Shown here in pieces: positions 1 to 37,932 of a DNA stretch of 64,000 bases; position 1 is the first letter of the stretch, and every line of letters starts with the position of its first letter. Source of the stretch: Acidimicrobiales bacterium (lineage in GTDB: Bacteria; Actinomycetota; Acidimicrobiia; Acidimicrobiales; Bin134); the NCBI GenBank assembly GCA_965116535.1, contig OZ220703.1:385545-449544 (forward strand). Direction: 5' to 3'. Position numbers and translations under genes: made by a program. The notes under the pieces are model-generated. The model did not search any database, was not told the origin of the DNA, and saw only the letters and a program-made list of their open reading frames with translations.

Positions 1-3000
1 GTCGCCGGCGGGGATGGTCAAAGTGGTCGTGGTGCCCAGCGCGGCGGGCGACGTCGCCCCCGCGGGCGCGCCGGCCTCCACGCCGACCGTGAAGGTGATT
101 GGATCGGCAGAGGTTCGGTCGATGGAGGCGGTGACGGTGGCGGTGACGGCGGCGTCGTCCTCGGGAACCGACGGCCGCGACAGCGTCAGGGTGGCCTTCG
201 GGGGCAAGTCGTAGGCGAACACCTTGTCGCGGACGTTGGAATCGGTGTTGTCGTTGACCACCCACAGGGTGATGCCGTCCGACCAGATTCCCACCGGAGA
301 GTCGTTGTCGGCGTGCAGGGCCAGGTCTTGGCCGGGGTCGTGCTGCCAGGTGATGAGAACGGGGTCGTCGTCGTCTTCAGTCTCTAGGGCCCCGTAGTCC
401 AGCACCATCTTGTAGGCGTACAGCTTCTGGTCGTCGGCATCGGTCACCCACATCGTGCGCCCGTCCGACCAGATGTACTCGGGAGCGTCGTTCTCGACGT
501 GGAGGGGCAGGTCTCTTTCGACGGTGTAGGAGCCGAATTCCGCATCGTACTCTTCGTTGATGTGGTAGGCGTACAGCCTGAGGTCTTCGGTATCGACCAC
601 CCAGATGGTGGTGCCGTCCGACCAGACACCGCCGGGGTTGGCGTTGGCTGAGTCGAGGGCGATCGTGTCAAACCTTCGGTAGGCGCGGTTGGAGAATAGG
701 TAGGCCCGCAGATTTCCTACGTCCTTATCGACTGCCCACAGCGTGGTGAGGTTCGACCACACGCCCTTGTGGACGCCATGCGATGCCAGGGTCCAATCGG
801 AGCTTTCGATGCGCGTGCCGTAGGTACTGCCTTCGGCCACCCCGTAGGCGAACAGCCTATGGGGGCCATCGGACGATGAAACGGGTTGGTCGACCACCCA
901 CAGCGTGGTGTCGTCCGACCACACGCCCCGGGGCCTGGCGTTGTCAGCAGCAAGATTGAAATCGCGGCTGGAGTCGTACCGGCCGACGCCCACCGGCACC
1001 GGCTCGTCGTCGGCCACGAGCAGGGTAATCGGTAGGGGGTTCTTGTCGACGAGTGAGATGCCGGTTGTGACGGTGGCGGTGAAGACCACCGGGCGGGGGC
1101 CGGTGCGGACGGCATCGTCTGATGAGGTGATGGTGATGGGGCTTGTGCTCTCCCCAGCGTTCGCTGCGAAGCTCAGGGTTGTGGAACTCAGCGTCACTGG
1201 CGAGTCGTCGGGCACCGAAACGGTGATGGTCACCGGCCCGTCCACCGTCGGGTCCAAAGTGGCGTACAGCTGCGCGGTGCCCCCGTTCTCGGAGATCTCG
1301 GAAATCCTCTCGCCTGAGGATTCGTCGCGCCTCAGCTTCAGAGTCACCGGGGACGGATCGGCGGTTTCGCGGCTGAACATGTTGTAGGAGTAGATGGCGT
1401 CGTCGCTGCCGCTGGCCACCCACAACGTGTCGCCGTCAGACCAGATGCTGAGCGATTTGTCCGGGTTCGGCGCCTGGCGGGGGCCGTTCTGGCCTACGGG
1501 CCCCTTCTGGTCGGGAGACCCGGAGCGGGAGCCGCCGGCGCCGCCGGCGCCGCCGATGAGGTTGTCGAACTCGAGATCGTCGGTAGCTCCAGTGCCGTCC
1601 TGGCGGGTGCCGTCCGACAGCGCGTAGGCATACAGCTTGTCGTCGGCGGTGTCGGCCACCCACATCACAGTCCCGTCCGACCAGATGCCGTCGGGGTCGC
1701 CGTTGTCGGCCGCGTCGTCGGTGGCGTGATCGGCCAGATCGAACTCGAGATCGTCGGTAGCACCGGTGCCGTCCTGGCGGGTGCCGTCCGACAGCGCGTA
1801 GGCATACAGCTTGTCGTCGCCCGCGTCGGCCACCCACATCACAGTCCCGTTCGACCAGATGCCCCGCGGGTCGCCGTTGTCGGCCGCGTCGTCGGTGGCG
1901 TGATCGGCCAGATCGAACTCGAGATCGTCGGTAGCACCGGTGCCGTCCTGGCGGGTGCCGTCCGACAGCGCGTAGGCATACAGTTTGTCGTCGCCCGCGT
2001 CGGCCACCCACATCACAGTCCCGTTCGACCAGGAGCCCCGCGGGTCGCTGTTGGCGGCGTCCAGAGCGAACCCGGCGCCGGAGTCGTGCTGCTTGGTGTC
2101 GGTGTTGTAGGCGTACAGCGCGCCACCAGCGTCGAGCACGTACATGCGGTCGCCCACGCGGAACAGGCCCCGGGGCTCGTCGTTGGCGGTCGCCAGCACG
2201 GGGATGTCGTCCACTGCCTTCCACTCGCCGGATGAGTCCGAGCCCAAATTGAGGGTGAGCACATAGGTGCGGGTGGCCAAGTTGTCGGAGCCGGTCACCT
2301 TCACCTTGACCGTGTTGGCGCCGGCGCTGAGCGCCACCTGGAAGCCGTTGCCGGCGTCGTTGTCCGCGTCGTCGAGCGTGCCGTCGTCGCCGTCGAGGAA
2401 CGCCACCCCCGCGCTCACGTCCGTCTTCGTCGGCGACACCGTCACCGGCGACGTGCCCGCAGCGAAGCCCGCTGTGTACTCGTGGACATCGGACGCGAAG
2501 GTCGGGCTGAGCACCGCGGGCTGCGAGTCGCTGCCGGTGACCTCGAGCGCTCTCAAGGAGGCGTCCGCCGGTACCGTGACGTCGATCAGATAACGGGCCA
2601 TGGTGCCGTCCTCGGCGGTGACCGTCACCACGATCCCGTTGGATCCCCGCACCAGGCTCACCTGATGGCCGTTCCCCGAATTACCGTCGGCGTCGGCGGG
2701 GGCGAACGAGACCTGCGACGTGGCCGCGGTGGGCTCAGCCGACACCGTCACCGTGTCAGCGCCCTCCAGCGCGGTGGCGATATAGAAAGTCGCGGTCAGG
2801 GGGGTCAGCGTAAGCGGGTTGTTGTAGCCGTCGGTCAGCTCGATGCTGTCGCTCTTGAGCGTGGCGTCGCCGTCGAGCGAGGTGTCGTGGGTGCTGTTGT
2901 AGGCGAACACCTTGGAGTGCTCGGCACCGTCACCGCGGCCCACATAGACCACGCCGCCGTCGTGCCACACACCCCCGATTTGGCCTCCCGAGCCGGTGTG

Positions 3001-6000
3001 GCTCTCGTGCAGACCGATGTCCCATGCCTCGTTGCGGGTTCCGTCGGCCAACTGGAACGCATACAGCTTGCCGTCGCTGTCGTTGAGCGCCCAGATCGCG
3101 GTGCCGTCGGAGGCGATGCCGCGCAGGCTCTCGCCGCTGTCGAACACCTCGGTGAGGCTGATGTCCTTGGCTGAGTCGTGAGCCTTCGTCGCAAGGGTGT
3201 ACGCGTAGATCTTTCGATCTTCAGAGTCGCCCACCCACATGGTGTCGCCGTTGGACCATATGCCCGCAGGGTCGTCGTGGCCCGCGGGCTGGGCGATGTC
3301 CTTGGCCGAATCGCGGTCGCCGTGAACCGGGCCCGCCGCCCCCGCAGCGGTGACGTCGATCTTGTACGCGTACAGCTTGTCGTCGTCGGGATCGGCCACC
3401 CACATCGTGCCGCTCACCGAGTCGTCGCCCGCCACCTCGACATCAGCGAAGACGCCGGCCCCCAGTGCTTCGTTGCCGTCGCCCGTGTTCAGCTCGATGT
3501 CGAGGACGGCCACGCGGCTGCCGTCGGAGCGGTTGAACGCCAGCACCTTGTCGCTGCCGTCGTCGGCCACCCACAGCGTGCCCGCGGTGCCCCACACATC
3601 CCGCGGCTCAATGTTCTCGGTGTCCCACAGGAAGTTGAAGTCGTCGCCGGCGCGCCATTTGCCGGCATCGGCCGAGCCGCGGCCCAGATGCAACGTGTAC
3701 TCGGTGGCCAAGACGCTGTCTGGCACCGACACCCGCACCGTCAACACAGTGACGGTGCCCGCCGCCCCCAGAGCCACCTGATGGCCCGCCGCTCCAGAAG
3801 TGGTGTCGGCGTCGTCGAGGCGGTCGCCGTTCGCGTCGAACACCGCCACCACGACATCGGCAGCATCCGCGGTCGTAGTCCAATCGAGCGTGACCTGCCC
3901 GACATCGCTGTCGAAACCGGCGTGATACACCAAATGATCAGCGGTGAAACCATGCAGCCTGTCGTCGGACTCGCCCGCCGCGGACGCCGACAATGCGGCC
4001 AATTCGGGGGAGGGCAGCTCATCCACCACCTGAAACACGCCCGACAACGCGTACAGCGGCAGAGCCCCATTGCTGGACGCGGTATTCGCATCGAACGCGT
4101 CGCCGGCCGTCTCCGGAGTGCCTATCTGCGCCTCTGGTGCCTTTCCGAGGTATCCGGTCGCGTGCGCGGTGCCGTCGGACGAACAGCCGGTCCAAGCCGA
4201 GGTCTCGCGGCTATTGTCCGCGCCCGAGGTGAACCTCGAAACCAAGCTTTGCCAGTCTTCGGTATAGAACGCCTTGTAGTGGTCGGCGATCTTGGCGCCG
4301 TTGAGCCAGTAGACGGGCACGCCGGTGTCATCGTCGGTGTAGGTGGTGCCGGTGTGGTCGCGTGCGCTCAGGCCCTGGGTGCATCCCAGCACCGTGAACA
4401 GGCCGCCGAACGAACCGACCGCGGCATGGCCGTTAGCGCCGATGTCGGCGCGCACATGGCTGTCGTAGTTGGCGATGGCGGTTGCGGTGGCGTCGCGTTT
4501 GCTGACCGTGAGCGCCAACAGCCGGAACTGGTCGCCGTCGTTCAGCCCCGACGGCGTGAGGGTCCAGCCGTCCGGCACCGCGGTCACGCCTTCGGCCAGT
4601 ATGACGGGTTCACGGCTGAAGGTGACGGTGTAGGTCTCAGTGGTGGTGGTGTCCTGGGCGGTGACGGTGACGGTCACGTCGACGGTGCCGTTCCCGGTGA
4701 GGCCCGACAGGTCCACTTGGTGGCCGCCGTCGGTGTTGCTGCTGTCCGCGGGCGAGGTGACCGCGGCGGTGGCCCTGAGCTGGCGCGCGCTGGCGGCCAC
4801 GGTGACCTCGTCGATGCCTGACGGAACGGTCACCAGCCGCACCGCATCGTTGTCGGGGTCGGCGACCACATCGAGCGTGCCGTCGGCGTGGGTGACGGTG
4901 ACTTTGCCGAGGTCGGCGTTGTCGGACACCGGCATGTTGAACGAATACAGCTTCTGGCCCGTGCCGGCGCCTTTCGGCCTGCCCGCACCGATGGCCGACA
5001 CCCACATCGTCACACCGTCAGACCACAGCCCCGCACGCGTCCACCTCGGCACACCAGCGGTGGTCGTGGCCAGGTCCTTCGCCGCGGCGCGCGACCCGTC
5101 AGCAAGGTTGTACGCGTACAGCTTGTCGTCGCCGTTGGTCTCGTCGGATTCGGTCACCCACACCGTCACACCGTCAGACCAGATGCCCTGCGCGTTGGCG
5201 TTGTCGCCATCCAGGTCAAACTCGCGGTCAGCGCGGCCGTCGTTGCCGTCCAAACGCAATCCGCTGGACAGATCGAACGCATACACCCGATCGGTGTCGG
5301 CATCAACAGTCCACAGCGTCGACCCGTCCGACCACAGGCCCGCCGCATCACCCGCCGCCGCCGGCACGCCGAACGGCTGAAGCGTGCCGTGAGGCGCGCC
5401 CGTCGAGATGTCATAGGGATGCACCCTCGCCGCGGGATCGTCGTAATTCAGCACCCACAGCGCGTCCGCGCCGCGCCACACCCCGTACACCGCCGGGCTG
5501 CACTTGTCATTGCCCGACAACCCGCAATTGCTCAACACCGTCAGCTCGGTGTCGTCAAGCTCCAGATCATCGGTGCCCGAGGTGCCGTCCTGGCGGACAC
5601 CACCAGGCCACGCGTAGGCGAACACCCGATCACCCCAGTCATCGGCCACCCACAGGGTCGAACCGTCCGACCACAAACCACGCGGGGCCCAATTCGTGCT
5701 GTCCAGCCACTCGACGTCATCGACCACCTTCCACACACCCACCTCCGACGACCCCAAACGCACCGTCAGCACATAGGTCTGCGTCGACGTGGTGTCCTGC
5801 GCGGTCACCACCACCTTCACCGTGCTGACCCCCGCCGGCAGCGCCGCCTGCAAACCATTCGACAGATCACCGTCAGAATCGGAGATCGCCGTGTCGTTGC
5901 CGTCGAAGTACGCCACAGACGCGCCGTCGTCGGAGAACACCGGCACCACCGACACCGACGCAGCCGCCGCCACATCCACCGCATAAGCCAAAGTCCCCGA

Positions 6001-9000
6001 CGCGAACCCCGCCACCGCAACGCCCTGCACCGACAAACCCGACAAAGACGCATCCTCCGACGGCGCAGCCGCCCGGGTCACTGTCAGGTTGTAGTCGCCG
6101 GTCGTGGTGCCGTCCTCGGCGGTGACCCGCAACCGCAACTTGTTGGCGCCCTCGGCCAGCGACGACACGGTGTGGGTCAGAATATGGGTGTCCGAGTCCT
6201 TGCCGGCCGAGTCGGCCAGCTCGGACTCGACCTCGCTGGGGGGGACGCCCGTCACCGACAGCAAGGCAACCGTCGCGTTCTCGTGGCCCGCGGTCGCCGA
6301 CACCGCCGCCTCCTCCACGTCATGGCCCACGTTCACCGTGTATTCCAGCTTGTCGGCCGCGAAACCCGGCACCGGCGTGCCCGCCACCGACAGCGCCGAC
6401 AGCGAGGCGTCCGCGGACTGGCGGCGCAGCCTGATCGTATAAGTCTTGGTGGTGCCGTCTTGGGCGGTGACCGTCACCGACACGTCCACGGTGCCGGTGA
6501 CGGGGAGGCTCACCTGGTGACCGCCGTCGACGTTGTTGCTGTCCACCGGCGAGGTGATCGCCGCGGTCGCCTTGAGCTGACGCGTCCCCACCGCCACAGT
6601 GACCTCAGCAACATCGGCAGGCGCAACCGCCAACAACAACGCGTCATCATCCGGGTCAGGCACCACATCCAAAGCGCCGCCGCTGTGAGTGACCGACACC
6701 ATGCCAAGCTCGACATTGTCCGACTCCGGCATCTTGTAGGAGAACAGCTTCTGGCCGACATACCCGCTTGGGCTGCTCCCCGATGCCCTCTCAGCCACCC
6801 ACATCACCTCGCCGTCGGACCAGATCCCCAACGGGAAACTCTGACCCGCCCCCGCCAGCGTGTTGAAGTCCTTCGAGGAGTCGCGGGCGCCCGTGTCCAG
6901 CGTGTACGCGTACAGCTTGTACTCGCTGTTGGTACTGTCGTTCTTGGCCACCCACATCGTGACCCCGTCGGACCAGACACCCTCCGGGTTGGCGTTGTCG
7001 GAGTGCAAGTCGAACTCGCGGCTCTCTCCGTCCTTGCTGTGTTGGCGGGCGCCGTCGTCGCGCGCATAAGCGAACATACGTTTAGAGGACGAGTCAGAGT
7101 TGAGCACCCACATCGTGGTGCCGTCGGACCACAGCGACCGAGGGTCGTTGTTTGACTGCACAAGCTCCAAGTCCGAGTCCGACGCACGGGAGAGGTCCGA
7201 CAGCTTGTACGCGTACGCCTTCTCGCTCCCGGAAGTTAGGGTGTTATGGACCACCCACATGGTGGTCCCGTCAGACCACAATCCCACGGGGTTCGGATCG
7301 CATCGACCTTCGGAGAAAGGACCGCAATCCGCCGCGTCAACCGACAGAGCGGCGCTGTCGAGCTCCTTGCTGGTGTCGCGCTCCCCGTCGGCCCGCGTGT
7401 ACGCGAACACATGATCGGCGGTGTCGTCGAGCACCCACAGCGTGGTGCCGTCAGACCATATGTCGTTCGGAAAGCCGTTGCCGGCCGCCAGCCAGTCCAT
7501 ATCGTCGACCACAAGCCAGCCGAAGGTCTCCGACGACCCCAAACGCACCGTCAACGTATACGTCTCCGTCGACGTCCCGTCCTCGGCGGTCACCACCACC
7601 TTCACCGTGCTGACCCCAGCCGGCAGCGCCGCCTGCAAACCATCCGCGTTGGCGTCCGCGTCGGTGATCGCCATGTCGCCGGCGTCTAAGAACGCCACCG
7701 ACGCGTTGTTGCCGCGGAACTCAGGCACCACCGACACCGAAGAGGCCGCCGCCACATCCACCGTATACGTCAGAGTCGCCGGATCGAACCCGTTCACCGC
7801 CTCGCCCTGCACCGTCAAACCCGACAGGGCCGCATCGTCGTCCAGCGAGGTGGCGAGGGCGTTGTAGGCGAACACCTTGGACCGCGTGCCGTCGCCGCGG
7901 CCCACGTACATGATGTCGTCGGAGAGCCACACACCGCGGATGCTGCCTCCCCCCGTGAGATGGCCGGAGTGGAGGCTGATGTCCCAATCGCTGTTGCGAT
8001 CCTTGCCGTCGATCTCGAACGCGTACAGCTTCCGGTCGTCTTGGTGGAGCGCCCAGATCGCGGTGCCGTCGCCGGTGATTCCCCGCAACTTGTTTCTTTC
8101 GACCTCGCTGGCGATATTGATGTCCTTGCCCGAGTCGCGGTCGCCGTAGTTGGCGCCGGTTTCGAGGGTGTAGGCGTAGAACCTTCGATCATCATCATCG
8201 GAGCGGTCAGAATCGCCCACCCACATGGTGGTCCCGTTCGACCACAAGCCTCGCGGCGTGTCATTCTTGGCGGTGTCTAGGCCGATGTCCTTGCCCGAGT
8301 CGCGGTCGCCGTGGTCCGTGCCCTTCGTGCCGTCGGCGTTGATGTCGATCTTGTAGGCAAAGATATGGTTCTTGCCGTCGTCGGCCACCCATATCGTGCC
8401 ACTCACCGACGAGTTGCCCTCCGCCTCCGCGTCGGTGAAGATCCCGCCGTCGAGATTTTGGTTAACTTCGCCACGGTCCGTAGCCGAGTTCACCAACACG
8501 ATGTCGAGACCCTCCGCCCGTCTGCCGTCGGAACGGTTGAACGCCAGCAGCGTCTTGGTGGTGTCGTCGCCCACCCACAGCGTGGCCTCAGTGACCGCGA
8601 TGCCGCGGGGCTTGATGCCCGCGACGTCCCACAAGTAGTTTATGTCGTCGCCGGCGCGCCAGCCTCCCGCCGCATCCGAGCCGCGGCCCAAGTACAGCGT
8701 GTACGTTCTAGTGTGGGTGGTGTCGGGAACGCTCGTCTTCACCTTGAACGTGTTGAGGCCGGCATTGAGGTTCACCTGGTGGCCCGCCCTGTTGTCGTCG
8801 GCGTCGTCGACGGCGGTGTCGCCGCTGTCAGTCACCGACACTGTGACGCCGGGGTCCGCTGTCCAGGCGATGGTGGCCTGTTCCACACCGTTGTCGAAGC
8901 CGACGTTATACACGTGATGGTCGGGCCTGAAGCCGTCCAGCCTCTCGTCGGACTCGCCTGCCGCGGTCACCGACAGGGGATGCAGATTCGCGGACAAGCC

Positions 9001-14790: not shown

Positions 14791-14812
14791 CGCGAGCGAA
14801 ACCGACCAGGGA

Positions 14813-23869: not shown

Positions 23870-23873
23870 CAAG

Positions 23874-23884: not shown

Positions 23885-24049
23885 TCAAAATCTTGCACTG
23901 ATTGATTGCCTCAACCACAAATAAGGCGCAATGCCCCAGGCCCCGCCAGCAATGTCTCCGCTGTCCCGGACAATCGAGTCCACTGGCATTGCGCACCCCG
24001 CCTTCGTGTATACGACTAGCGCTGGTATGTCGAACTGGACATAGCAGTA

Positions 24050-24187: not shown

Positions 24188-24234
24188 AAAGTACACCCGA
24201 ATGCGTGACACGCTTGACTCGCGGCTGATGCCGG

Positions 24235-28788: not shown

Positions 28789-28806
28789 GGCTGCTTGGTG
28801 TTCCTT

Positions 28807-31800
28807 TTAGGTGGTGGCTCGGGTGATGGTGACGGTGTAGGTGTAGGTGTCGGTGCCGTTGGGGGCGGTCACCTCGATGGTGATGGTGTTCACGCCGGTG
28901 GCGAGGTTGACCTGGTAGCCGCCGGTCTTGTCGTCGGCGTCCTCGGTGACGTCCTCGGTGGAGTCGTCGCTGTCGGCCGCGGTGATGGACACTTCCGAGT
29001 CGCCGCGGTCGAAGGCGGCCACCGCGGCCACGGTGGTGGTCGACACGCTGTTGGCCACCTCGGCGGTGTAGTTCGGCTTGCCGTGGATGAAGTGGCCGAA
29101 GTCGACATCGCTCATCGTCAGCGAGTACAGCTTGGCGTTGGAGGGCAGGCTGAACGCCTTGATGCCCGACAAATGCCGGTTTTCCCGCACTTCATAGGGA
29201 GCGTCCAGGACCCACATGGTGCGGCCGTCGGACCACAGGCCGCGGGGGTGGGTGACGCCGTCGAGGCCCACGGGGATGTCCATGCCCGGCATCCGGGCGC
29301 CGTCGGCCAGCGCGTAGGCCTCGAGCCGCGACGTGGCGTCGCCCTCATTCGCGGCGACCCACATGACCGTGCCGTCGGACCACAGGGCGAACGACACCTT
29401 GTTATCGGCTGCGAATCTGGAGTCCCCGGTGGTGGTGACGGTGATGTCGCGGTCGGCCTTTCGGGCCTTGGTGGCGAAGTCGAACGCCTGGAGCTTGCCC
29501 CCCAGAGGCACGCTGTCGTCGGCAGGACTGTCGTCGACTGACGCCACCCAGATGGTCTCGCCGTCTGACCACAGGTCCCGCGGCCCCTCGGTGTCGAAGA
29601 ACGACTGGGTGTGGATGTACTCCCCAGTGGATGACGCCATGTCGATGGCTTCGATGAAGGGGTGCCATGTCTTGGTGTTGACCCAGGGCTGGGCCATCCA
29701 CATGGTGTCGCCGTCGGCCCACAGGCCGGTGTCGTACCAGCTGTGCTCTTCGTTGCGCCGGAGGTCGTGCTGGGACTGGCGGTCCCCGGTGTCGAGGTCG
29801 TAGGCGTAGATGGTGTAGCTGGCGGAGCCCAGCAGCCACAGGGTGTCGCCGTCGGACCAGATGTCGTAGGGGCCGAAAAACTTCGAGTGTTGGCTGGGAA
29901 TGTTGCCGAGCAGGTCTTTGGTGGTGTCGCGTCTGGTGCGCAGCAGGTGCACGGTGTAGGCCTTGGCGGGGGAGCCGTCTTGGGGGGCGACGGTGACGGT
30001 GACGGCGGCCGGCGCGCCGTCGTCGATGTCGATCTGGTGCCCGCTGGTGCCGCCGTCGTCGTCGGCGGGCAGCGGGGTGACCGTGGCGTTGGCGTTGCCC
30101 GCGGTGTAGGCGACCGTGGTGGTGAACCCGTCGTCGGACTGGGCGTTGGTGAGCCGGTAGGTGTAGTCGGTGACGGCCGAGTCGAACGTCGGCGACAGCG
30201 TCACGCCGGTCAGGCTCAGCGCCGACAGCGTGTTGTCGCTCGACAGGTTGCCGGTGGTGCCGGCGAGGGTGGTGAGCTTGAGCGTGTACTCCATCGACTC
30301 GCCGTCTCTGGTCAGCGTGACGGAGATGTCGGTGACCCCGTCGGCGTCGAGGGTCACCTGGTGGCCCTCGTCGTTGGTATCGGCGTCGCCCGGCGAGATC
30401 GCCACCGTCGCGCCGGTGTGGATCGACACGGCCTCCACCGTCACCTCGGTGGCATCCGCGGCGATGTTGCGGGCGTAGTCGGTGACCGAGGGGGTGAAAT
30501 CGTCGAGGTTCACGCCGCTCACCTCGAGGCTCCGCAGGCCGTCCTGGACCAGCGTCACCTTGTAGACCTGCGCATACCGGGACGGCACGCCCGGGACATT
30601 CGATTTCAGGGTGAACGTGGTGGAGCCGTCGGCGTCCAGGCTGACCTGCTGCCCTCTGCTGCCGATACGGTACGGGCCCCCGTCGATGGACACCCGGAGA
30701 TCGCCTTGATGTGAGATCGCAAACAAGCTCACTTCGGTGAGCTCGGGGGACACCTCGTGGGTGAACTCGTCGGCGGCCGGGTCCCAGCCCGGCAGACCCG
30801 CACTGTCGATATTGTTGAGACGGAGAGAATTTATGCGATTGTCCTCGCCGCTCGGCGTCGGCGGGACCCGCACCTTGATGTTGTTGACCATCGTCTGGCG
30901 GTGGCCGGTGGGGCCTTGGACGACGGTGACGGTGACGGCGGCGATGCCGCTTGAGGGGATGTTCACCTGGTGCCCTTCGGCGACGCCGTCGGCGTCGGCG
31001 GGGGTGATGGTGACCTCTGCGTCGGATCGCAGCGCCTTGGCGTCGATTGTCGCCTGGGTGGTGCCATAGGACACATGGGTCGAGCCCGAGAGCGGTTGGG
31101 ATCTTTGGGATCTACTGCCCCCCAGCCAGTCCTTGCCGTTGATGGCGAGGCGGTGCAGGCGGGCGTCGGCGGGGAGGTTGTAGATGAACACCTTGGTGGT
31201 GTCGGCGTCGGCGATCCACAGCTGGGACTGGTCGGACCACATGGCCAGGGGCTGGTCGTTGTCGTCGGAGAGCCGCTGGTCGGCGTCGGACAGGCGCCGC
31301 TTGATGTCCTGGCTGGCGTCCCTTTGGCCGTTGTCGAGGCGGTAGGCGTAGACCCGGGCGTCGGCGCGGTCCGACACCCACAGGGTCGCGCCGTCGGACC
31401 ACACCCCGACGGGGTCTTGGTGGGGTCGGCCCGAGGTGTCGATGGTGCGCTCGAGGGCCTTGGTGGAGCGGTTGTACACGTAGATTCTGGCGTCGTCGTT
31501 GTCCACCACGTACAGGTCGGAGCTGTCGGCCCAGATGCCCATCGGGTTGGCGTTGCCCGCCGCGGACAGCGTCGTGAAGTCCGCGGCGGACTTGCGGGCG
31601 CCCGCCTCGATCTCAGGGGTGGCGTCGGAGTCGGCGTTGCGGTGGTAGCCCAAAATCGCCGCGGTTGCGTCGCTGGCGACCCACACCGTGTCGGCGTCCA
31701 TCCACAGGCCGTGCGACGTGCCGGCCTGGCTGGGGTTGTCGGTGGACGCGGGCAGGTCCAAGTCGATGTCCTTGTCGCTGTCGCGGGCGCCGCCCGACAG

Positions 31801-33327
31801 CGTGTACGCGTAGATCTTGCCGTCCCAGTCGCCGGTGCTGCCGCGCGCCGACACCCAGATCGTGGTCCCGTCAGACCAGAACGCCTGCGCGACCAGGTTG
31901 TTGGTGGCCAGGTCCGACACGATGTCGTCGGACGCGCCCGACGCCATCATCCCCGAAGCCATCATCATGCCCGACGGTGGGCCCTTGGGCGGCTCGAATG
32001 CTTTGCCGCCGGGGAAGAACCTGCTCTGCGCCGCGGCCGCAGGCTGGGCGTCGGCGGGGAACTCGATGAACGCCACCCCGTCGTCGGTGGTGCTCAGCTT
32101 GGCCACCGCGTCGGGCCCCTGGGTCAGCCCCGCCGCCGCCGAGCCCGCCGGCGGCGTCGCCACCAGAACGACCTCGCTGGACAAACCGCCGCCGGCGGCG
32201 AACTCGTAGCCGTCGTCGGCCACCGCGCCCGCAAAGGCCACCACCGCGTACCGGTACGAGCGGCCCGGCTCAGCGGTGCCGTCGAAGAACTCGTAGCCCG
32301 TGCGGCCCCGCTCCCACTCCACGGCGCCCACCACGTCCAACGGCGCGCGCCTAGCGCTGTCGGTGCGCCTCACCTGCACGAAGAACACCTCCGCCCACGA
32401 CGGCTGCTCGGGCACCGTCCAGCTCAGCGCCACCCCGCCGCCCTGCGCCACAGCCCCCAAACCCCCAGGCGCCACCGGCGCCTCAGACTCCACAGTCACC
32501 GCCACCGCATCGGAGAACACGTCGGGCAGACGCTCATGGACGCCGTCGCGGAACCTGTGGGCCTCCAGCCCCACCCGATACTCATAGGCCGCGCCCGCCA
32601 CAACACCGCTGGTGTCGTGGTACCAGGCCTCGCCGGAGTCCCAATCGATCCCGAAATACGACACCCAGTCCAGCGTCGACCACGCCCCGCCCCCCTCGCG
32701 GCGCTCCACAAACATATCGCCGATCGAAAAGTCCCCATACCCGTGATCCGGCAAATGCGGCGCCACCCACGCCAGCCGCACCGACCGGTGCGTCGCCGTC
32801 GCCGACAACCCCACAGGCGCCAACACCCCCGACACCGCCTCCTCACCCGACACCGAAACGGTGAACGACACCTCCAAAACCCCCAACACCACACCCGACA
32901 ACCGCCGACCCGAATACGCCACCGCCCGCAACACATACTCCCCCTCCGGCAACGCCCCGCCCGACAACCACCGGGCCGCGCCGTTGCGATAATCCCCATA
33001 CAGCGAATACGGCGCATAATTCTCCACCTGGGAATGCGCCGCCGCCCCGCTCAACTCCAAACCCACACTCCCCACAACCTCGCCAGCCGCCAACTCCACC
33101 CGGAACCCATAACTCCCCCCAACCGGATCGCCCACCACCACATCCGAACCATCCACCAACTCCGCAACCACCGACTGATCCCCCGCATCCACCACAACAA
33201 AACCCGCCAACGGCCCCGCACCCACAACATCGTCCTGCGCCGCCAAAGGCACCACAGCCAAACCGCTGAAGATCAGCACCACGACAAGCGCCATCCACGT
33301 GGTCTTCAACTTTGCAGATAGCGCCAT
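28807..33327 (-). CDS. Secreted 1,506-aa protein, paralog 1: GPLAGF module, 2 FN3-like domains, a 5-blade propeller, cadherin-like sandwiches, a second 5-blade propeller and a C-terminal cadherin-like domain
   Basis: From the ORF track. The signal peptide reads MALSAKLKTTWMALVVVLIFSGLAVVPLAAQ. Blades are FWSDGTTIWVSA, LWMDADTVWVAS, IWADSSDLYVVD, VWSDGATLWVSD, MWSDQSQLWIAD, then IWSDGDTLWLLG through LWSDGRTMWVLD. Cadherin-like motifs include LSALSLTGVTLSPTFDSAVTDYTY...YTVHLLR. Only 18 nt separate its stop from the next gene's ATG. Confidence 0.95.
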   Translation of the reverse strand: MALSAKLKTTWMALVVVLIFSGLAVVPLAAQDDVVGAGPLAGFVVVDAGDQSVVAELVDGSDVVVGDPVGGSYGFRVELAAGEVVGSVGLELSGAAAHSQVENYAPYSLYGDYRNGAARWLSGGALPEGEYVLRAVAYSGRRLSGVVLGVLEVSFTVSVSGEEAVSGVLAPVGLSATATHRSVRLAWVAPHLPDHGYGDFSIGDMFVERREGGGAWSTLDWVSYFGIDWDSGEAWYHDTSGVVAGAAYEYRVGLEAHRFRDGVHERLPDVFSDAVAVTVESEAPVAPGGLGAVAQGGGVALSWTVPEQPSWAEVFFVQVRRTDSARRAPLDVVGAVEWERGRTGYEFFDGTAEPGRSYRYAVVAFAGAVADDGYEFAAGGGLSSEVVLVATPPAGSAAAGLTQGPDAVAKLSTTDDGVAFIEFPADAQPAAAAQSRFFPGGKAFEPPKGPPSGMMMASGMMASGASDDIVSDLATNNLVAQAFWSDGTTIWVSARGSTGDWDGKIYAYTLSGGARDSDKDIDLDLPASTDNPSQAGTSHGLWMDADTVWVASDATAAILGYHRNADSDATPEIEAGARKSAADFTTLSAAGNANPMGIWADSSDLYVVDNDDARIYVYNRSTKALERTIDTSGRPHQDPVGVWSDGATLWVSDRADARVYAYRLDNGQRDASQDIKRRLSDADQRLSDDNDQPLAMWSDQSQLWIADADTTKVFIYNLPADARLHRLAINGKDWLGGSRSQRSQPLSGSTHVSYGTTQATIDAKALRSDAEVTITPADADGVAEGHQVNIPSSGIAAVTVTVVQGPTGHRQTMVNNIKVRVPPTPSGEDNRINSLRLNNIDSAGLPGWDPAADEFTHEVSPELTEVSLFAISHQGDLRVSIDGGPYRIGSRGQQVSLDADGSTTFTLKSNVPGVPSRYAQVYKVTLVQDGLRSLEVSGVNLDDFTPSVTDYARNIAADATEVTVEAVSIHTGATVAISPGDADTNDEGHQVTLDADGVTDISVTLTRDGESMEYTLKLTTLAGTTGNLSSDNTLSALSLTGVTLSPTFDSAVTDYTYRLTNAQSDDGFTTTVAYTAGNANATVTPLPADDDGGTSGHQIDIDDGAPAAVTVTVAPQDGSPAKAYTVHLLRTRRDTTKDLLGNIPSQHSKFFGPYDIWSDGDTLWLLGSASYTIYAYDLDTGDRQSQHDLRRNEEHSWYDTGLWADGDTMWMAQPWVNTKTWHPFIEAIDMASSTGEYIHTQSFFDTEGPRDLWSDGETIWVASVDDSPADDSVPLGGKLQAFDFATKARKADRDITVTTTGDSRFAADNKVSFALWSDGTVMWVAANEGDATSRLEAYALADGARMPGMDIPVGLDGVTHPRGLWSDGRTMWVLDAPYEVRENRHLSGIKAFSLPSNAKLYSLTMSDVDFGHFIHGKPNYTAEVANSVSTTTVAAVAAFDRGDSEVSITAADSDDSTEDVTEDADDKTGGYQVNLATGVNTITIEVTAPNGTDTYTYTVTITRATT

Positions 33328-33378
33328 TTGAATTTGTCCTTTCGCTTGGCCCTCGCCCGCCGGCGGGATGCGCTCCCC

Positions 33379-36300
33379 TCAGGTGGTGGCTCGGGTGATG
33401 GTGACGGTGTAGGTGTAGGTGTCGGTGCCGTTGGGGGCGGTCACCTCGATGGTGATGGTGTTCACGCCGGTGGCGAGGTTGACCTGGTAGCCGTCGGTCT
33501 TGTCGTCGGCGTCCTCGGTGACGTCTTCGGTGGAGTCGTCGCTGTCGGCCGCGGTGATGGACACTTCTGAGTCGCCGCGGTCGAAGGCGGCCACCGCGGC
33601 CACGGTGGTGGTCGACACGCTGTTGGCCACCTCGGCGGTGTAGTGGGGTTTGCCGTGGATGAAGTGGCCGAAGTCGACGTCGCTCATCGTCAGCGAGTAC
33701 AGCTTGGCGTTGGAGGGCAGGCTGAACGCCTTGATGCCCGACAAGGGCCGCCTGTCTGGGTCGTCGTAGGGAGCGTCCAGGACCCACATGGTGCGGCCGT
33801 CGGACCACAGGCCGCGGGGGTGGGTGACGCCGTCGAGGCCCACGGGGATGTCCATGCCCGGCATCCGGGCGCCGTCGGCCAGCGCGTAGGCCTCGAGCCG
33901 CGACGTGGCGTCGCCCTCATTCGCGGCGACCCACATGACCGTGCCGTCGGACCACAGGGCGAACGACACCTTGTATCGAAATACGTATCTGGAGTCCCCG
34001 GTGGTGGTGACGGTGATGTCGCGGTCGGCCTTTCGGGCCTTGGTGGCGAAGTCGAACGCCTGGAGCTTGCCCCCCAGAGGCACGCTGTCGTCGGCACGAC
34101 GGCCGTCGACCGAGGCCACCCAGATGGTCTCGCCGTCTGACCACAGGTCTCGCGGCCCCTTGGTGTCGAAGAACGACTCGGCGTCGATATGGGTGGCGGC
34201 AGACGACGCCATGTCGATGGCTTCGATATAGGGATGTTTGATGGACCCGGAGGACCAAGCCTCGGCGATCCACATGGTGTCGCCGTCGGCCCACAGGCCG
34301 GTGTCGTAATTGCTGTGCTCTCTGCTGCGCCGGAGGTCGTGCTGGGACTGGCGGTCCCCGGTGTCGAGGTCGAAAGCGTGCATCGTGAAGCTGGCGGAGT
34401 TCAGGACCCACATGGTGTCGCCGTCGGACCAGATGTCGTAGGGGCCGGTCAATTTCGGCTCGTAGTCGAGAATGCCGTCGAGCAGGTCCTTGGTGGTGTC
34501 GCGCCTGGTGCGCAGCAGGTGCACCGTGTAGACCTTTGCGGGGGAGCCGTCTTGGGGGGCGACGGTGACGGTGACGGCGGCCGGCGCGCCGTCGTCGATG
34601 CTGATCTGGTGCCCGCTGGTGCCGCCGTCGTCGTCGGCGGGCAGCGGGGTGACCGTGGCGTTGGCGTTGCCCGCGGTGTAGGCGACCGTGGTGGTGAACC
34701 CGTCGTCGGACTGGGCGTTGGTGAGCCGGTAGGTGTAGTCGGTGACGGCCGAGTCGAACGTCGGCGACAGCGTCACCCCCGACAGGCTCAGCGCCGACAG
34801 CGTGTTGTCGCTCGACAGGTTGCCGGTGGTGCCGGCGAGGGTGGTGAGCTTGAGCGTGTATTGCATCGACTCGCCGTCTCTGGTCAGCGTGACGGAGATG
34901 TCGGTGACCCCGTCGGCGTCGAGGGTCACCTGGTGGCCCTCGTCGTTGGTATCGGCGTCGCCCGGCGAGATCGCCACCGTCGCGCCGGTGTGGATCGACA
35001 CGGCCTCCACCGTCACCTCGGTGGCATCCGCGGCGATGTTGCGGGCGTAGTCGGTGACCGAGGGGGTGAAGTCGTCGAGGTTCACGCCGCTCACCTCGAG
35101 GCTCCGCAGGCCGTCCTGGACCAGCGTCACCTTGTAGACCTGCGCATACTTGGGCGCCACCAACCGGGAATTCGATTTCAGGGTGATCGTGGTGGAGCCG
35201 TCGGCGTCGAGGCTGAGCCGGCGCTCTTCACCGCCGTAGCGGTACAGGCCCCCGTCGACGGACACCCGGAGATCGGCATCAGTTCCGAACGCCTTCAACG
35301 TCACTTCGGTGAGCTCGGGGGCCACCTTGTAGGTGTACTCCCCGGGGACGGGGCCGAAGCCCGGCACTTCCGCACCGTTGAGATAGAAAGAATGTATGCG
35401 GTTGTCCCAGCCGCTCGGCGTCGGCGGAACCCGAAGTCCCACCTCGTAGACCATCGTCTGGCGGTGGCCGGCGGGGCCTTGGACGACGGTGACGGTGATG
35501 TCGGCGGTGGCGCCGTTTGGGGGGAAGTTCACCTGGTGCCCTTCGGCGACGCCGTCGGCGTCGGCGGGGGTGATGGTGACCTCTGCGTCGGATCGCAGCG
35601 CCTTGGCGTCGATTGTCGCCTGGGTGGTGCCATAGGGCATATAGGTCCAGCCCCCTCCCTCATTGGAGCGCTGGCCCCCCAGCCAGTCCTTGCCGTTGAA
35701 GGCGAGGCGGTGCAGGCGGGCGTCGGCGGGGAGGTTGTAGATGAACACCTTGGTGGTGTCGGCGTCGGCGATCCACAGCTGGGACTGGTCGGACCACATG
35801 GCCAGGGGCTGGTCGTTGTCGTCGGAGAGCCGCTGGGTTGCGTCGGACAGGCGCCGCTTGATGTCCTGGCTGGCGTCCCTTTGGCCGTTGTCGAGGCGGT
35901 AGGCGTAGACCCGGGCGTCGGCGCGGTCCGACACCCACAGGGTCGCGCCGTCGGACCACACCCCGACGGGGTCTTGGTGGGGTCGGCCCGAGGTGTCGAT
36001 GGTCCGCTCGAGGGCCTTGGTGGAGCGGTTGTAGACGTAGATTCTGGCGTCGTCGTTGTCCACCACGTACATGTCCGACGCGTCGGCCCAGATCCCCATG
36101 GGGTTGGCGTTGCCCGCCGCGGACAGCGTCGTGAAGTCCGCGGCGGACTTGCGGGCGCCCGCCTCGATCTCAGGGGTGGCGTCGGAGTCGGCGTTGCGGT
36201 GGTAGCCCAAAATCGCCGCGGTTCCGTCGCTGGCGACCCACACCGTGTCGGCGTCCATCCACAGGCCGTGCGACGTGCCGGCCTGGCTGGGGTTGTCGGT

Positions 36301-37932
36301 GGACGCGGGCAGGTCCAAGTCGATGTCCTTGTCGCTGTCGCGGGCGCCGCCCGACAGCGTGTACGCGTAGATCTTGCCGTCCCAGTCGCCGGTGCTGCCG
36401 CGCGCCGACACCCAGATCGTGGTCCCGTCAGACCAGAACGCCTGCGCGACCAGGTTGTTGGTGGCCAGGTCCGACACGATGTCGTCCGACGCGCCCGACG
36501 CCATCATCCCCGACGCCATCATCATGCCCGACGGTGGGCCCTTGGGCGGCTCGAATGCTTTGCCGCCGCGCACGAGCCTCTGCTGCGCGGCGGCGGGCTG
36601 GATGTCGGTGTCGGCGGGGAACTCGATGAACGCCACCCCGTCGTCGGTGGTGCTCAGCTTGGCCACCGCGTCGGGCCCCTGGGTCAGCTTGGCCGCCGCC
36701 GAGCCCGCCGGCGGCGTCGCCACCAGAACGACCTCGCTGGACAAACCGCCGCCGGCGGCGAACTCGTAGCCGTCGTCGGCCACCGCGCCCGCAAAGGCCA
36801 CCACCGCGTACCGGTACGAGCGGCCCGGCTCAGCGGTGCCGTCGAAGAACTCGTAGCCGGTGCGGCCCCGCTCCCACTCCACGGCGCCCACCACGTCCAA
36901 CGGCGCGCGCCTAGCGCTGTCGGTGCGCCTCACCTGCACGAAGAACACCTCCGCCCACGACGGCTGCTCGGGCACCGTCCAGCTCAGCGCCACCCCGCCG
37001 CCCTGCGCCACAGCCCCCAAACCCCCAGGCGCCACCGGCGGCGCGGACTCCACAGTCACCGCCACCGCATCGGAGAACACGTCGGGCAGACGCTCATGGA
37101 CGCCGTCGCGGAACCTGTGGGCCTCCAGCCCCACCCGATACTCATAGGCCGCGCCCGCCACAACACCGCTGGTGTCGTGGTACCAGGCCTCGCCGGAGTC
37201 CCAATCGATCCCGAAATACGACACCCAGTCCAGCGTCGACCACGCCCCGCCCCCCTCGCGGCGCTCCACAAACATATCGCCGATCGAAAAGTCCCCATAC
37301 CCGTGATCCGGCAAATGCGGCGCCACCCACGCCAGCCGCACCGACCGGTGCGTCGCCGTCGCCGACAACCCCACAGGCGCCAACACCCCCGACACCGCCT
37401 CCTCACCAGGCCGCGCGCCCGACACCGAGAACGCAACCTCCAAAACCCCCAACACCACACCCGACAACCGCCGACCCGAATACGCCACCGCCCGCAACAC
37501 ATACTCCCCCTCCGGCAACGCCCCGCCCGACAACCACCGGGCCGCGCCGTTGCGATAATCCCCATACAGCGAATACGGCGCATAATTCTCCACCTGGGAA
37601 TGCGCCGCCGCCCCGCTCAACTCCAAACCCACACTCCCCACAACCTCGCCAGCCGCCAACTCCACCCGGAACCCATAACTCCCCCCAACCGGATCGCCCA
37701 CCACCACATCCGAACCATCCACCAACTCCGCAACCACCGACTGATCCCCCGCATCCACCACAACAAAACCCGCCAACGGCCCCGCACCCACAACATCGTC
37801 CTGCGCCGCCAAAGGCACCACAGCCCCCGACAACCCCAACACCAATAACAACAACGCCGCGGCAAGCGTCAAAACAACCCGACGGCCACCCGACCAACCA
37901 GCAACAACCCGGAACACCGACCTAACGGCCAT
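33379..37932 (-). CDS. Secreted ~1,517-aa protein, paralog 2 of the preceding gene
   Basis: ORF track 33379..38016. I prefer the ATG at 37932, which gives MAVRSVFRVVAGWSGGRRVVLTLAAALLLLVLGLSGAVVPLAAQ. The upstream 28 codons are AT-richer, include the hairpin CGATGGG-N10-CCCATCG, and abut the conserved intergenic element. The architecture is identical to paralog 1. Confidence 0.9.
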   Translation of the reverse strand: MAVRSVFRVVAGWSGGRRVVLTLAAALLLLVLGLSGAVVPLAAQDDVVGAGPLAGFVVVDAGDQSVVAELVDGSDVVVGDPVGGSYGFRVELAAGEVVGSVGLELSGAAAHSQVENYAPYSLYGDYRNGAARWLSGGALPEGEYVLRAVAYSGRRLSGVVLGVLEVAFSVSGARPGEEAVSGVLAPVGLSATATHRSVRLAWVAPHLPDHGYGDFSIGDMFVERREGGGAWSTLDWVSYFGIDWDSGEAWYHDTSGVVAGAAYEYRVGLEAHRFRDGVHERLPDVFSDAVAVTVESAPPVAPGGLGAVAQGGGVALSWTVPEQPSWAEVFFVQVRRTDSARRAPLDVVGAVEWERGRTGYEFFDGTAEPGRSYRYAVVAFAGAVADDGYEFAAGGGLSSEVVLVATPPAGSAAAKLTQGPDAVAKLSTTDDGVAFIEFPADTDIQPAAAQQRLVRGGKAFEPPKGPPSGMMMASGMMASGASDDIVSDLATNNLVAQAFWSDGTTIWVSARGSTGDWDGKIYAYTLSGGARDSDKDIDLDLPASTDNPSQAGTSHGLWMDADTVWVASDGTAAILGYHRNADSDATPEIEAGARKSAADFTTLSAAGNANPMGIWADASDMYVVDNDDARIYVYNRSTKALERTIDTSGRPHQDPVGVWSDGATLWVSDRADARVYAYRLDNGQRDASQDIKRRLSDATQRLSDDNDQPLAMWSDQSQLWIADADTTKVFIYNLPADARLHRLAFNGKDWLGGQRSNEGGGWTYMPYGTTQATIDAKALRSDAEVTITPADADGVAEGHQVNFPPNGATADITVTVVQGPAGHRQTMVYEVGLRVPPTPSGWDNRIHSFYLNGAEVPGFGPVPGEYTYKVAPELTEVTLKAFGTDADLRVSVDGGLYRYGGEERRLSLDADGSTTITLKSNSRLVAPKYAQVYKVTLVQDGLRSLEVSGVNLDDFTPSVTDYARNIAADATEVTVEAVSIHTGATVAISPGDADTNDEGHQVTLDADGVTDISVTLTRDGESMQYTLKLTTLAGTTGNLSSDNTLSALSLSGVTLSPTFDSAVTDYTYRLTNAQSDDGFTTTVAYTAGNANATVTPLPADDDGGTSGHQISIDDGAPAAVTVTVAPQDGSPAKVYTVHLLRTRRDTTKDLLDGILDYEPKLTGPYDIWSDGDTMWVLNSASFTMHAFDLDTGDRQSQHDLRRSREHSNYDTGLWADGDTMWIAEAWSSGSIKHPYIEAIDMASSAATHIDAESFFDTKGPRDLWSDGETIWVASVDGRRADDSVPLGGKLQAFDFATKARKADRDITVTTTGDSRYVFRYKVSFALWSDGTVMWVAANEGDATSRLEAYALADGARMPGMDIPVGLDGVTHPRGLWSDGRTMWVLDAPYDDPDRRPLSGIKAFSLPSNAKLYSLTMSDVDFGHFIHGKPHYTAEVANSVSTTTVAAVAAFDRGDSEVSITAADSDDSTEDVTEDADDKTDGYQVNLATGVNTITIEVTAPNGTDTYTYTVTITRATT

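Follow-up and report, generated by a model that had tools for sequence, protein, structure and literature searches.

Sequence searches place the five-bladed WSDG propeller in a large family that, as far as they reach, is named by no curated library. We consider it most likely to be an extracellular recognition or adhesion module, and give this explanation, taken as a whole, a probability of roughly 60%. The propeller occurs in giant proteins with apparent signal peptides, both in this Acidimicrobiales bacterium and in many further bacteria and archaea associated with sponges, and is joined there in series to cadherin-like beta-sandwiches, fn3, vWA and other modules.

Seventy-five blades form fifteen units in four proteins

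We searched the window (the whole 64,000-nt stretch of DNA analysed here) with a blade HMM, which was started from ten vWA-protein blades and rebuilt over successive rounds until it converged. Across the proteins of the window the HMM detected 75 blades, of which the giant gene, G1, has 45 and the genes G3, G4 and G5 have 10 each. The LRR/fn3 gene (14813-23872) and the fn3 gene (38422-41826) gave no blade matches. When all six frames of the window were scanned, the same 75 blades were returned, located from 196 to 36447 in a single frame of the minus strand, and the HMM gave 0 blade matches in 20 residue shuffles that served as a control. Each unit consists of exactly five blades, and there are 15 units, nine in G1 and two each in G3, G4 and G5. 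Successive blades are 44–70 aa apart, and one unit spans about 215–270 aa. The genes and their units are as follows.

1..14532, minus strand: giant gene G1, frame open for 4844 aa, C-terminus beyond the left window edge; N-terminal signal-like segment, cadherin-like beta-sandwich domains, nine propeller units and three copies of an unnamed domain of ~210 aa
12223..13041, minus strand: G1 unit 1, type II, five blades (aa 498-770)
11098..11835, minus strand: G1 unit 2, type II, five blades (aa 900-1145)
9958..10716, minus strand: G1 unit 3, type II, five blades (aa 1273-1525)
7831..8613, minus strand: G1 unit 4, type II, five blades (aa 1974-2234)
6724..7479, minus strand: G1 unit 5, type I, five blades (aa 2352-2603)
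4930..5694, minus strand: G1 unit 6, type I, five blades (aa 2947-3201)
2869..3615, minus strand: G1 unit 7, type II, five blades (aa 3640-3888)
1378..2184, minus strand: G1 unit 8, type I, five blades (aa 4117-4385)
196..942, minus strand: G1 unit 9, type I, five blades (aa 4531-4779)
24235..28788, minus strand: gene G3 (vWA protein), 1517 aa; signal-like N-terminus, fn3, three unnamed 'GPLAGF' domains, two propeller units and, at the C-terminus, two vWA domains
26572..27198, minus strand: G3 unit 1, type I, five blades (aa 531-739)
25447..26091, minus strand: G3 unit 2, type I, five blades (aa 900-1114)
28807..33327, minus strand: gene G4 (first paralog), 1506 aa; 'GPLAGF' domain, fn3-like region, two propeller units and cadherin-like domains
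31141..31890, minus strand: G4 unit 1, five blades, motifs partly degenerate (aa 480-729)
29197..29871, minus strand: G4 unit 2, five blades (aa 1153-1377)
33379..38016, minus strand: gene G5 (second paralog), 1545 aa
35698..36447, minus strand: G5 unit 1, five blades (aa 524-773)
33769..34446, minus strand: G5 unit 2, five blades (aa 1191-1416)

Five units of the giant gene (units 1–4 and 7) are of type II, with a fixed series of motifs and HGDRDSxKDI linkers. The remaining ten units are WSDG-like (type I), and some of them contain degenerate blades (e.g., GLWMDADTVWV, GIWADSSDLYV, GVWRGADALWV and GLFRVGDRMYV). In G1 unit 8, blades 2–4 correspond to a 174-nt tandem repeat of 2.8 copies with 95% identity (1565-2058). 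G5 is a mosaic, near-identical paralog of G4, with an overall identity of 87%. An earlier note on this DNA had described exactly five blades in every unit, two flavours of unit, and the propeller as the core building block of these proteins. All three are borne out here, and the unit placement given there agrees with our blade spans to within about 50 nt. The minus-strand location of every blade is absent from that note. No recognisable cell-wall anchor was found in the four proteins; thus, they may be released rather than surface-bound.

Predicted fold and blade architecture

One unit of each type was modelled with AF2. Both the type I unit (G3 unit 1; pLDDT 91.7, pTM 0.89) and the type II unit (G1 unit 2; pLDDT 88.4, pTM 0.88) were predicted to be closed five-bladed propellers. 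DSSP assigned five sets of three long strands and one short strand to the models, and in both models an N-terminal strand lies ahead of blade 1. As modelled, the units are beta-propellers, with antiparallel four-stranded blades and a ring closed by strand exchange. In the predicted blade, strand A would be formed by P-x-G-I-W-S and followed by a tight D-G-T turn, and strand B would be formed by T-M-W-V-A-D, after which the variable B-C loop begins. K-[LI]-Y-A-Y would then constitute strand C, and R-D-x-x-K-D-F-x-L the short strand D. The ring appears to be closed by the DFxxL strand ahead of blade 1, which would serve as the missing fourth strand of blade 5.

A Foldseek search yielded more than 1000 matches to propellers in the PDB. 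The top matches by E-value (1e-10 to 1e-8) were Pizza6, PknD, NHL domains (TRIM71, Thin and Lin41), Vgb lyase and YVTN propellers, with the best values, 2e-10 to 6e-9, obtained for Pizza6 and PknD at 18–23% identity. The highest TM scores, 0.74–0.75, were those of the five-bladed glutaminyl cyclases 3mbr, 3nol and 2iwa, with which the units share 9–12% identity. The best E-values (Pizza6, PknD, TRIM71, Thin and Lin41) point to an NHL-type blade geometry. The likeness extends to four-stranded blades of about 42–47 aa and to the same motif logic: a hydrophobic strand A ending in Asp/Gly, an x-[IM]-[YW]-V-[AT]-D motif, and a K/R-[IL]-x-x-[FY] strand. However, NHL domains have six blades while the units described here have five, and the Pfam NHL model gives these units no score. 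The WSDG family also differs from NHL in its distinctive Trp-rich WSDGTTMWV core and in an internal symmetry far above that of natural NHL domains. Judging by the models, the blade is a remote relative of the NHL/PknD/SGL/Vgb class, arranged in a ring of five blades and not of six or seven.

Searches for a named family

Pfam and NCBIfam searches with whole proteins and with single units returned no domain-level family. Searches of PDB sequences (phmmer and profile hmmsearch) returned only antibody noise and marginal matches to an SMP-30 family protein and Vgb lyase. NHL (PF01436) had no match to single units at E ≤ 10, and was absent from the 25 most-matched families listed when 98 family members were scanned at E ≤ 1. 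Tachylectin (PF14517) matched no single unit even at E ≤ 10 and was not among the families listed for the 98 members, while Glu_cyclase_2 (PF05096) was never listed in the Pfam scans of single units or members. Nothing that describes the family turned up in the literature, whether the motif or propellers of sponge symbionts were looked for, and the accession numbers likewise gave nothing.

Several Pfam labels were considered and rejected. Sub-threshold to marginal whole-protein scores were obtained for SGL in 42 of the 98 members, for arylesterase in 18 and for lactonase in 14. These scores, like those for NCH3, add up the matches of individual blades to a single short stretch of each profile. 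For SGL (PF08450), the whole-protein scores of 25–34 bits are summed over blades, no stretch is significant alone, and profile positions about 137-199 of 246 are matched, which falls short of a domain-level match. NCH3 (PF22729) matched 88/98 members, sometimes above the cutoff. It was rejected as an artefact, since the match always covers ~25 residues (profile positions 35-61) on a beta-strand region modelled at pLDDT >90.

The earlier note had read the units as five-bladed propellers of a possibly unclassified family, and had proposed predicted structures and Foldseek for one type I and one type II unit as a check. For both flavours this check returned a propeller with five blades, in keeping with the TM scores to five-bladed glutaminyl cyclases, and the family is unclassified in that Pfam, NCBIfam and PDB sequence searches gave no domain-level match. 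The statement that the motif could not be placed in a named family holds for the curated libraries; at the level of the fold it does not, since Foldseek assigns the blade to the NHL/PknD/Vgb/SGL class.

Family size, blade number and hosts

Homologs were counted as representatives of clusters at 50% identity, of which 1.84 billion were searched. The search yielded 13,087 representatives at E ≤ 1e-3, 6,807 at E ≤ 1e-10 and 2,840 at E ≤ 1e-30. For ten of the top representatives, looking up the clusters gave no names. Throughout the family, units normally have five blades: exactly five blades were present in 119/176 short homologs, and 77 genome loci contained 149 five-bladed units and 12 arrays of 10, 15 or 20 blades. 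One archaeal protein has 35 blades. Small secreted proteins with little beyond one unit are common and occur in multiple copies per genome. In larger proteins, the partner domains are cadherin-like, cadherin, fn3, vWA, LRR and CARDB domains, a PKD-like module (read by eye), and a C-terminal tail of the EF-hand/FG-GAP type. A dedicated search for type II homologs retrieved mostly type I proteins, and motif searches found the type II motifs only in P0198 and L003.

Genomes were scanned with a profile built from a trimmed alignment. Among the 80 best genome matches, out of at least 569, the hosts included Acidimicrobiales, Dehalococcoidia, Latescibacterota, Gemmatimonadota, Ekhidna, Limisphaerales, Vicinamibacterales, Salinispira, Gammaproteobacteria, Nitrosopumilus and Nitrosopumilaceae. 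Sponge association was verified for three host MAGs, L020 (RHO1_bin_28), L031 (IRC4_bin_29) and L057 (VXPS, IRC_PAM_SB0662_bin_61), which appear in the list of sponge-derived MAGs in the PMC8163846 supplement. Other hosts are probably sponge-associated as well, as suggested by their names, which are those of sponge lineages (e.g., Ca. Poriferisodalis and Ca. Spongiisociaceae). The occurrence of the propeller in phyla that are not related to one another would be consistent with lateral transfer. No relatives turned up when viral contigs were scanned. Since no eukaryotic homolog was found among the named matches, the label "eukaryote-like" is unjustified for this propeller.

A conserved scaffold with variable loops

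Among 1,745 unique blades, 19 of the 42 positions have a residue at >80% frequency. The near-invariant residues occupy strands A–C and the A-B turn, and two Trp are invariant in each blade. Conservation is lowest at the x-x and x of N-x-x-P-x-G and at the residues after WVAD. The same variable hot spots were found in a close subfamily of 30 members, in which variability is twofold higher in the propeller than in the C-terminal domain attached to it. Likewise, most of the unit 2 differences between the recent paralogs G4 and G5 are located in the D-A and B-C loops. The dN/dS between G4 and G5 was 0.87 in unit 2, compared with 0.13-0.34 elsewhere, a comparison of two sequences only that form a mosaic, gene-converted pair. 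In an alignment of the regular units of eight members, all invariant columns lie within the repeated blade motif and none is specific to one blade. The aligned blades point to a pattern of scaffold and variable loops, with variation concentrated in the D-A and B-C loops. According to standard propeller topology, rather than model coordinates, both loops would lie on one face.

Alternative explanations

The earlier note had compared the propeller to tachylectin-2 and suggested a carbohydrate-binding role. Tachylectin-2 has five blades of ~47 aa with high internal repeat identity, and acts in extracellular recognition. If the WSDG propeller were a multivalent lectin of this type, the invariant Trp, Asp and Thr would build a conserved sugar pocket that is the same in every blade or at every junction between blades, and tandem units would bind sponge or microbial glycans with high avidity. 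The five blades, their very high symmetry and their two invariant Trp fit this explanation, as do partner domains of the extracellular adhesion type and the FGE-sulfatase genes that adjoin the small Latescibacterota paralogs. The hosts, moreover, are sponge-associated, and the use of host glycans by symbionts is well described (PMC8163846). However, tachylectin-2 was outside the 50 best Foldseek matches, its Pfam model gave no score, and the conserved positions, in strands A–C and the A-B turn, resemble the scaffold motif of NHL and SGL more than a pocket. The most variable positions are the surface loops, presumably of one face, the opposite of what is expected for a conserved pocket; therefore, a variable recognition surface fits better than five identical sugar pockets. 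Neither the tachylectin-2 analogy nor a carbohydrate role found specific support, and we regard a lectin of this type as unlikely.

Equally doubtful is a passive spacer, in which rigid propeller "beads" extend or stiffen giant surface fibres while the cadherin-like, vWA or LRR parts do the binding. The extremely conserved scaffold and the regular alternation of units with beta-sandwich domains would suit such a role, and no signature of a ligand site was identified. Yet a spacer cannot explain the small secreted one-unit proteins, common and multi-copy as they are, and the focus of variation on two loops, together with the raised dN/dS between paralogs, suggests a selected surface. Even less probable is an enzymatic role, whether as SGL, arylesterase, lactonase or glutaminyl cyclase, in which the central channel would house the active site. 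The weak whole-protein Pfam scores, the marginal PDB profile matches to an SMP-30 family protein and Vgb lyase, and the top TM scores to glutaminyl cyclases can be cited in its favour. SGL (SMP-30/gluconolactonase/LRE), arylesterase and lactonase show repeated weak matches to single blades and belong to the same broad propeller class, but the Pfam scores are summed over blades on one profile segment with no significant domain-level stretch. SGL-type enzymes have six or seven blades and bind a metal in the channel, whereas in the eight-member alignment of the WSDG family no invariant residue is confined to a single blade. The glutaminyl cyclases share a closed five-bladed propeller of ~235–250 residues and gave the best global superposition; however, identity to them is very low, the Glu_cyclase_2 model is scoreless, and they are single-domain enzymes with an asymmetric active site, while the WSDG family is fivefold pseudo-symmetric and modular. 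No asymmetric active site is apparent in the eight-member alignment, and up to nine units per protein here, or 35 blades in the archaeal protein, interleaved with adhesion domains, would be atypical of an enzyme.

Proposed function

We favour a binding module for recognition or adhesion because the partner domains are of extracellular adhesion types and the variation is focused in loops. A ligand-binding role in general seems the best reading of these data. We infer that the module acts outside the cell and binds through one face: the scaffold would be rigid and almost without variation, the D-A and B-C loops of each blade would expose about five variable residues around the central axis, and with units in tandem a protein could bind multivalently to the host's matrix or cells, or to other microbes. 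NHL-type domains bind ligands by their top face, which is the function proposed here for the WSDG propeller. Against this reading, the polar residues under strong conservation (S, D, T, T, D, K, R, D, K and D) may make up five equivalent sites for a ligand or metal and not a purely structural network.

More tentatively, the WSDG propeller may be an overlooked, symbiosis-specific recognition platform, exchanged laterally among at least ten bacterial phyla and the ammonia-oxidising archaea in sponges, whose nearly unchanging fivefold scaffold would carry ~25 rapidly diversifying top-face residues that recognise or evade surfaces of the host or of neighbours. These residues can be likened to the hypervariable repeats of NLR immune receptors, here on the microbial side.

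Significance

The WSDG propeller is a natural minimal propeller with nearly perfect fivefold symmetry, and may thus be of interest to protein designers. An HMM built from the 1,745 blades would help in choosing small one-unit proteins for binding or structural work, and would allow the spurious NCH3, SGL and arylesterase labels to be corrected. The propeller occurs in the same hosts, and in the same type of giant secreted multi-domain protein, as the eukaryote-like repeat and adhesion proteins of sponge symbionts (cadherin, fn3, LRR, ankyrin, WD40 and NHL). Surveys of such proteins use fixed Pfam lists, and have reported Actinobacteriota and Thaumarchaeota to be poor in classical repeat proteins (PMC8163846, PMC11706023). 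Since the WSDG propeller is a domain without a Pfam model, it goes uncounted in these surveys, and it comprises thousands of protein clusters with up to 35 blades per protein, including in Actinobacteriota and Thaumarchaeota. The blade HMM would allow its enrichment in sponge symbionts to be tested.

Propeller blades in a cluster of giant genes

The leftmost 42 kb of the window is occupied by six very large genes, every one on the minus strand and each with a hydrophobic signal-like N-terminus; the remainder of the window holds ordinary genes for metabolism and transport.

The six giant genes, numbered left to right
G1, 1–14532, minus strand: open frame of 4844 aa, C-terminus past the window edge
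G2, 14813–23872, minus strand: 3019 aa, LRR and fn3
G3, 24235–28788, minus strand: 1517 aa, the "vWA protein" of the earlier note
G4, 28807–33327, minus strand: mosaic paralog of G5
G5, 33379–38016, minus strand: mosaic paralog of G4
G6, 38422–41826, minus strand: fn3 array

Cadherin-like beta-sandwich (PF12733), fn3 and vWA domains were detected in the giant proteins with Pfam and NCBIfam. To delimit blades, an HMM was seeded with ten blades of G3 and iterated to convergence. It identified 75 blades: G1 has 45, and G3, G4 and G5 have 10 apiece; neither G2 nor G6 has any. When the entire window was scanned in six frames, the identical 75 blades came back, in a single minus-strand frame between 196 and 36447, and 20 residue shuffles gave no match. 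The blades form 15 units of five each, as the earlier note had claimed, and its unit coordinates agree with ours to within ~50 nt. The two flavours that it distinguished were also recovered: five G1 units carry the type II series GTADTLWVAD, SVSGTMWVAD, WSNGTTMWV, GDGTAIWVL and GAWIEGxxIYVG, with HGDRDSxKDI linkers in between, and the other ten are WSDG-like (type I), with a few degenerate blades. The eighth unit of G1 contains a 174-nt tandem repeat (1565–2058, minus strand; 2.8 copies, 95% identity) encoding three near-identical blades of 58 aa; these were recently duplicated or homogenised, and the unit still totals five blades.

Two further domains recur in the giant proteins. The second recurrent domain after the propeller, of ~120 aa, has the motif GPLAGF(S/V)L(I/V)DA and, even at E ≤ 10, is matched by nothing in Pfam. 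The other, of ~210 aa with the motif GDxFRLL..T...RDATS..I..Y..FV, apparently occurs three times in G1 and is also found in P0198, a homologous protein; its copies were identified by eye, and the first is without a Pfam match at E ≤ 10.

Copies of the two domains
GPLAGF domain, G3: aa ~236–345, ~388–505 and ~752–866
GPLAGF domain, G2 C-terminus, 14822–15573: 381-nt tandem, 2 copies
GPLAGF domain: N-termini of G4 and G5
~210-aa domain, ~13498–14085, minus strand: G1 aa ~150–345
~210-aa domain, ~9043–9660, minus strand: G1 aa ~1625–1830
~210-aa domain, ~4018–4599, minus strand: G1 aa ~3312–3505

G2 has no propeller blades, yet it is clustered with the other giant secreted proteins; it consists of an internally duplicated ~1,400-aa LRR-plus-unknown-domain module, followed by fn3 repeats and the two GPLAGF domains. 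Farther along, a plus-strand gene (56024–57679) encodes N-6 DNA methylase and Eco57I-like domains. The surrounding G+C is 0.58–0.61, against ~0.65 elsewhere, and the stretch may be an acquired restriction-modification island.

Predicted fold and relation to named families

The structure of the first unit of G3 was predicted from 98 aligned family members (mean pLDDT 91.7, pTM 0.89). In the model, a set of three long strands, a short fourth one and a helix of a single turn recurs five times. Because an additional strand precedes blade 1 and blade 5 has only three strands of its own, the N-terminal "DFxxL" strand would complete blade 5 and close the ring. A type II model (G1 unit 2; pLDDT 88.4, pTM 0.88) also has five blades, with a long hairpin in blade 2. 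In a Foldseek search of the PDB, the best E-values for the G3 unit (2e-10 to 1e-8) belonged to the designed Pizza6 proteins, the PknD sensor domain, NHL domains (TRIM71, Thin, Lin41), Vgb lyase and YVTN propellers, at a TM of 0.55–0.66, which is what five blades superposed on six or seven should give. The highest TM, 0.74–0.75 over nearly the full length, was reached by glutaminyl cyclases with five blades (3mbr, 3nol and 2iwa), at 9–12% identity. The type II model matched the same classes. Thus, the models of one unit of each type and their Foldseek matches bear out the five-bladed propeller proposed from the sequence.

Neither whole proteins nor single units gave a curated-threshold match on the blades in Pfam or NCBIfam. 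Queries of PDB sequences, made with a single unit and with the family profile, returned only noise and marginal hits, the latter to an SMP-30 protein (E 0.013) and to Vgb lyase. When the 98 alignment members were scanned one by one against Pfam, NCH3 was matched by the most members (88), followed by SGL (42), arylesterase (18) and lactonase (14). In all cases inspected, these scores summed short matches of several blades on one profile segment, and no single stretch was significant. We take the SGL, arylesterase and lactonase matches to mean that the blade motif is distantly related to these families without belonging to any of them. No match to NHL, Tachylectin or Glu_cyclase_2 was among those listed in the unit and 98-member scans. 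Homologs, where named, are called "hypothetical protein" or after an attached cadherin domain, and literature searches found no publication describing the blade motif.

NCH3 (PF22729, "NACHT C-terminal helical domain 3") was rejected as a false positive: its score sums matches of 20–25 residues, at profile positions 35–61, on beta-strand regions. It exceeds its whole-protein cutoff on some members (e.g., P0025, P0031 and P0045) and is likely to give rise to false annotations of the propellers; alternatively, the NCH3 model itself could include a blade-like segment.

The earlier note had been unable to place the motif. That holds for names, since the family has none in the libraries searched; at the fold level the blade is of the NHL/SGL class. 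We put the probability that the units represent an unnamed family of five-bladed, NHL/SGL-like propellers at roughly 0.9.

Family size and hosts

When 1.84 billion cluster representatives were searched with a profile, 13,087 of them matched at E ≤ 1e-3, 6,807 at 1e-10 and 2,840 at 1e-30. Many of these proteins are giant (1,000–6,400 aa) and contain as many as 28 matched stretches. Five is the blade number of the family: exactly five were counted in 119 of 176 short homologs, the others being mostly fragments, and 77 genome loci held 149 five-blade units, 12 arrays of 10, 15 or 20 blades and 7 of four. Type II units are a lineage-restricted offshoot, because they were found only in P0198 (6,437 aa, ~41–45% identical to G1) and at one locus (L003) of a related Acidimicrobiales MAG.

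Relatives are encoded by at least 569 stretches of one-genome-per-species contigs, and host lineages were taken from the best 80. These include Acidimicrobiales (among them Ca. Poriferisodalis, Ca. Poriferisocius and Ca. Aldehydirespirator; closest match listed 80% identical), Dehalococcoidia and other Chloroflexota, Latescibacterota, Gemmatimonadota, Ekhidna, Limisphaerales, Vicinamibacterales, Salinispira and Gammaproteobacteria with Ca. Spongiisociaceae, and the archaea Nitrosopumilus and Nitrosopumilaceae. Scanned viral contigs held no relatives. RHO1_bin_28, IRC4_bin_29 and IRC_PAM_SB0662_bin_61, all of which encode relatives, are sponge-derived MAGs (PMC8163846, supplement), and the Acidimicrobiia families Poriferisodalaceae and Aldehydirespiratoraceae contain sponge-symbiont lineages (PMC11706023).

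The archaeal copies (L067, Nitrosopumilus sp.; L078, Nitrosopumilaceae) are ~45–50% identical to bacterial ones, and one Nitrosopumilus protein of 2,520 aa has 35 blades alternating with PKD-like modules. The propeller domain has likely been transferred laterally between bacteria and archaea. At two Latescibacterota loci (L079, 9168–12299; L081, 6281–7564), small one-unit genes (P0006, P0023) directly adjoin FGE-sulfatase (PF03781) genes; upstream at L079 there is also a sigma-54 regulator that carries a Reg_prop/Y_Y_Y sensor.

Variable loops and possible function

The consensus of 1,745 unique blades is N-x-x-P-x-G-[IL]-W-S-[DN]-G-T-T-M-W-V-A-D-x-x-D-D-K-[LI]-Y-A-Y-x-[LM]-x-x-x-x-R-D-x-x-K-D-[FI]-x-[LT], with a frequency above 80% at 19 of 42 positions. 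Information is lowest at the three x of N-x-x-P-x-G (D-A loop) and at the two residues after WVAD (B-C loop); by standard four-stranded blade topology, both loops would lie on one face. A 377-aa subfamily (30 members, median identity 74%) has its variable hot spots at the same positions, and its propeller shows twice the variability of the C-terminal domain attached to it. In the tandem paralogs G4 and G5, long stretches of 100% identity are interspersed with divergent patches, a mosaic that suggests gene conversion and local diversification. One of two divergent patches is unit 2, with several differences in the D-A and B-C loops. NG86 dN/dS, from these two sequences only, reaches 0.87 for unit 2, compared with 0.34 for unit 1 and 0.13 for the C-terminal region, a contrast suggestive at best of a variable face. 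Their cadherin-like region (aa 740–900; genes at 28807–38016) has an NG86 dN/dS of 1.98.

A tachylectin-like lectin with five conserved pockets is possible, and many invariant blade residues are indeed polar. However, the variable loops speak against such pockets, and structural or sequence support is lacking: tachylectin-2 was absent from the 50 best Foldseek matches listed for either model. An enzymatic role is unlikely. Across eight regular units that were aligned, no residue is invariant in one blade only, which argues against a single asymmetric active site, and in the cases inspected the scores to enzyme families (SGL, arylesterase, lactonase) dissolve into summed blade matches. The units could also be pure spacers, but this leaves single-unit proteins unexplained; in many small secreted proteins, all that accompanies the one unit is a small C-terminal domain or a tail of the EF-hand/FG-GAP type.

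Partner domains of the propellers are of extracellular adhesion types. Taken together with the loop variability, the G4/G5 dN/dS values and the lack of one-blade invariants, they are best read as pointing to a rigid, conserved propeller scaffold that would display a variable recognition face, its units being used multivalently within surface or secreted proteins. For binding as the function we would give slightly better than even odds. The propeller family is of interest for its abundance, its cross-domain spread among sponge-associated microbes and the blindness of Pfam-based surveys to it.
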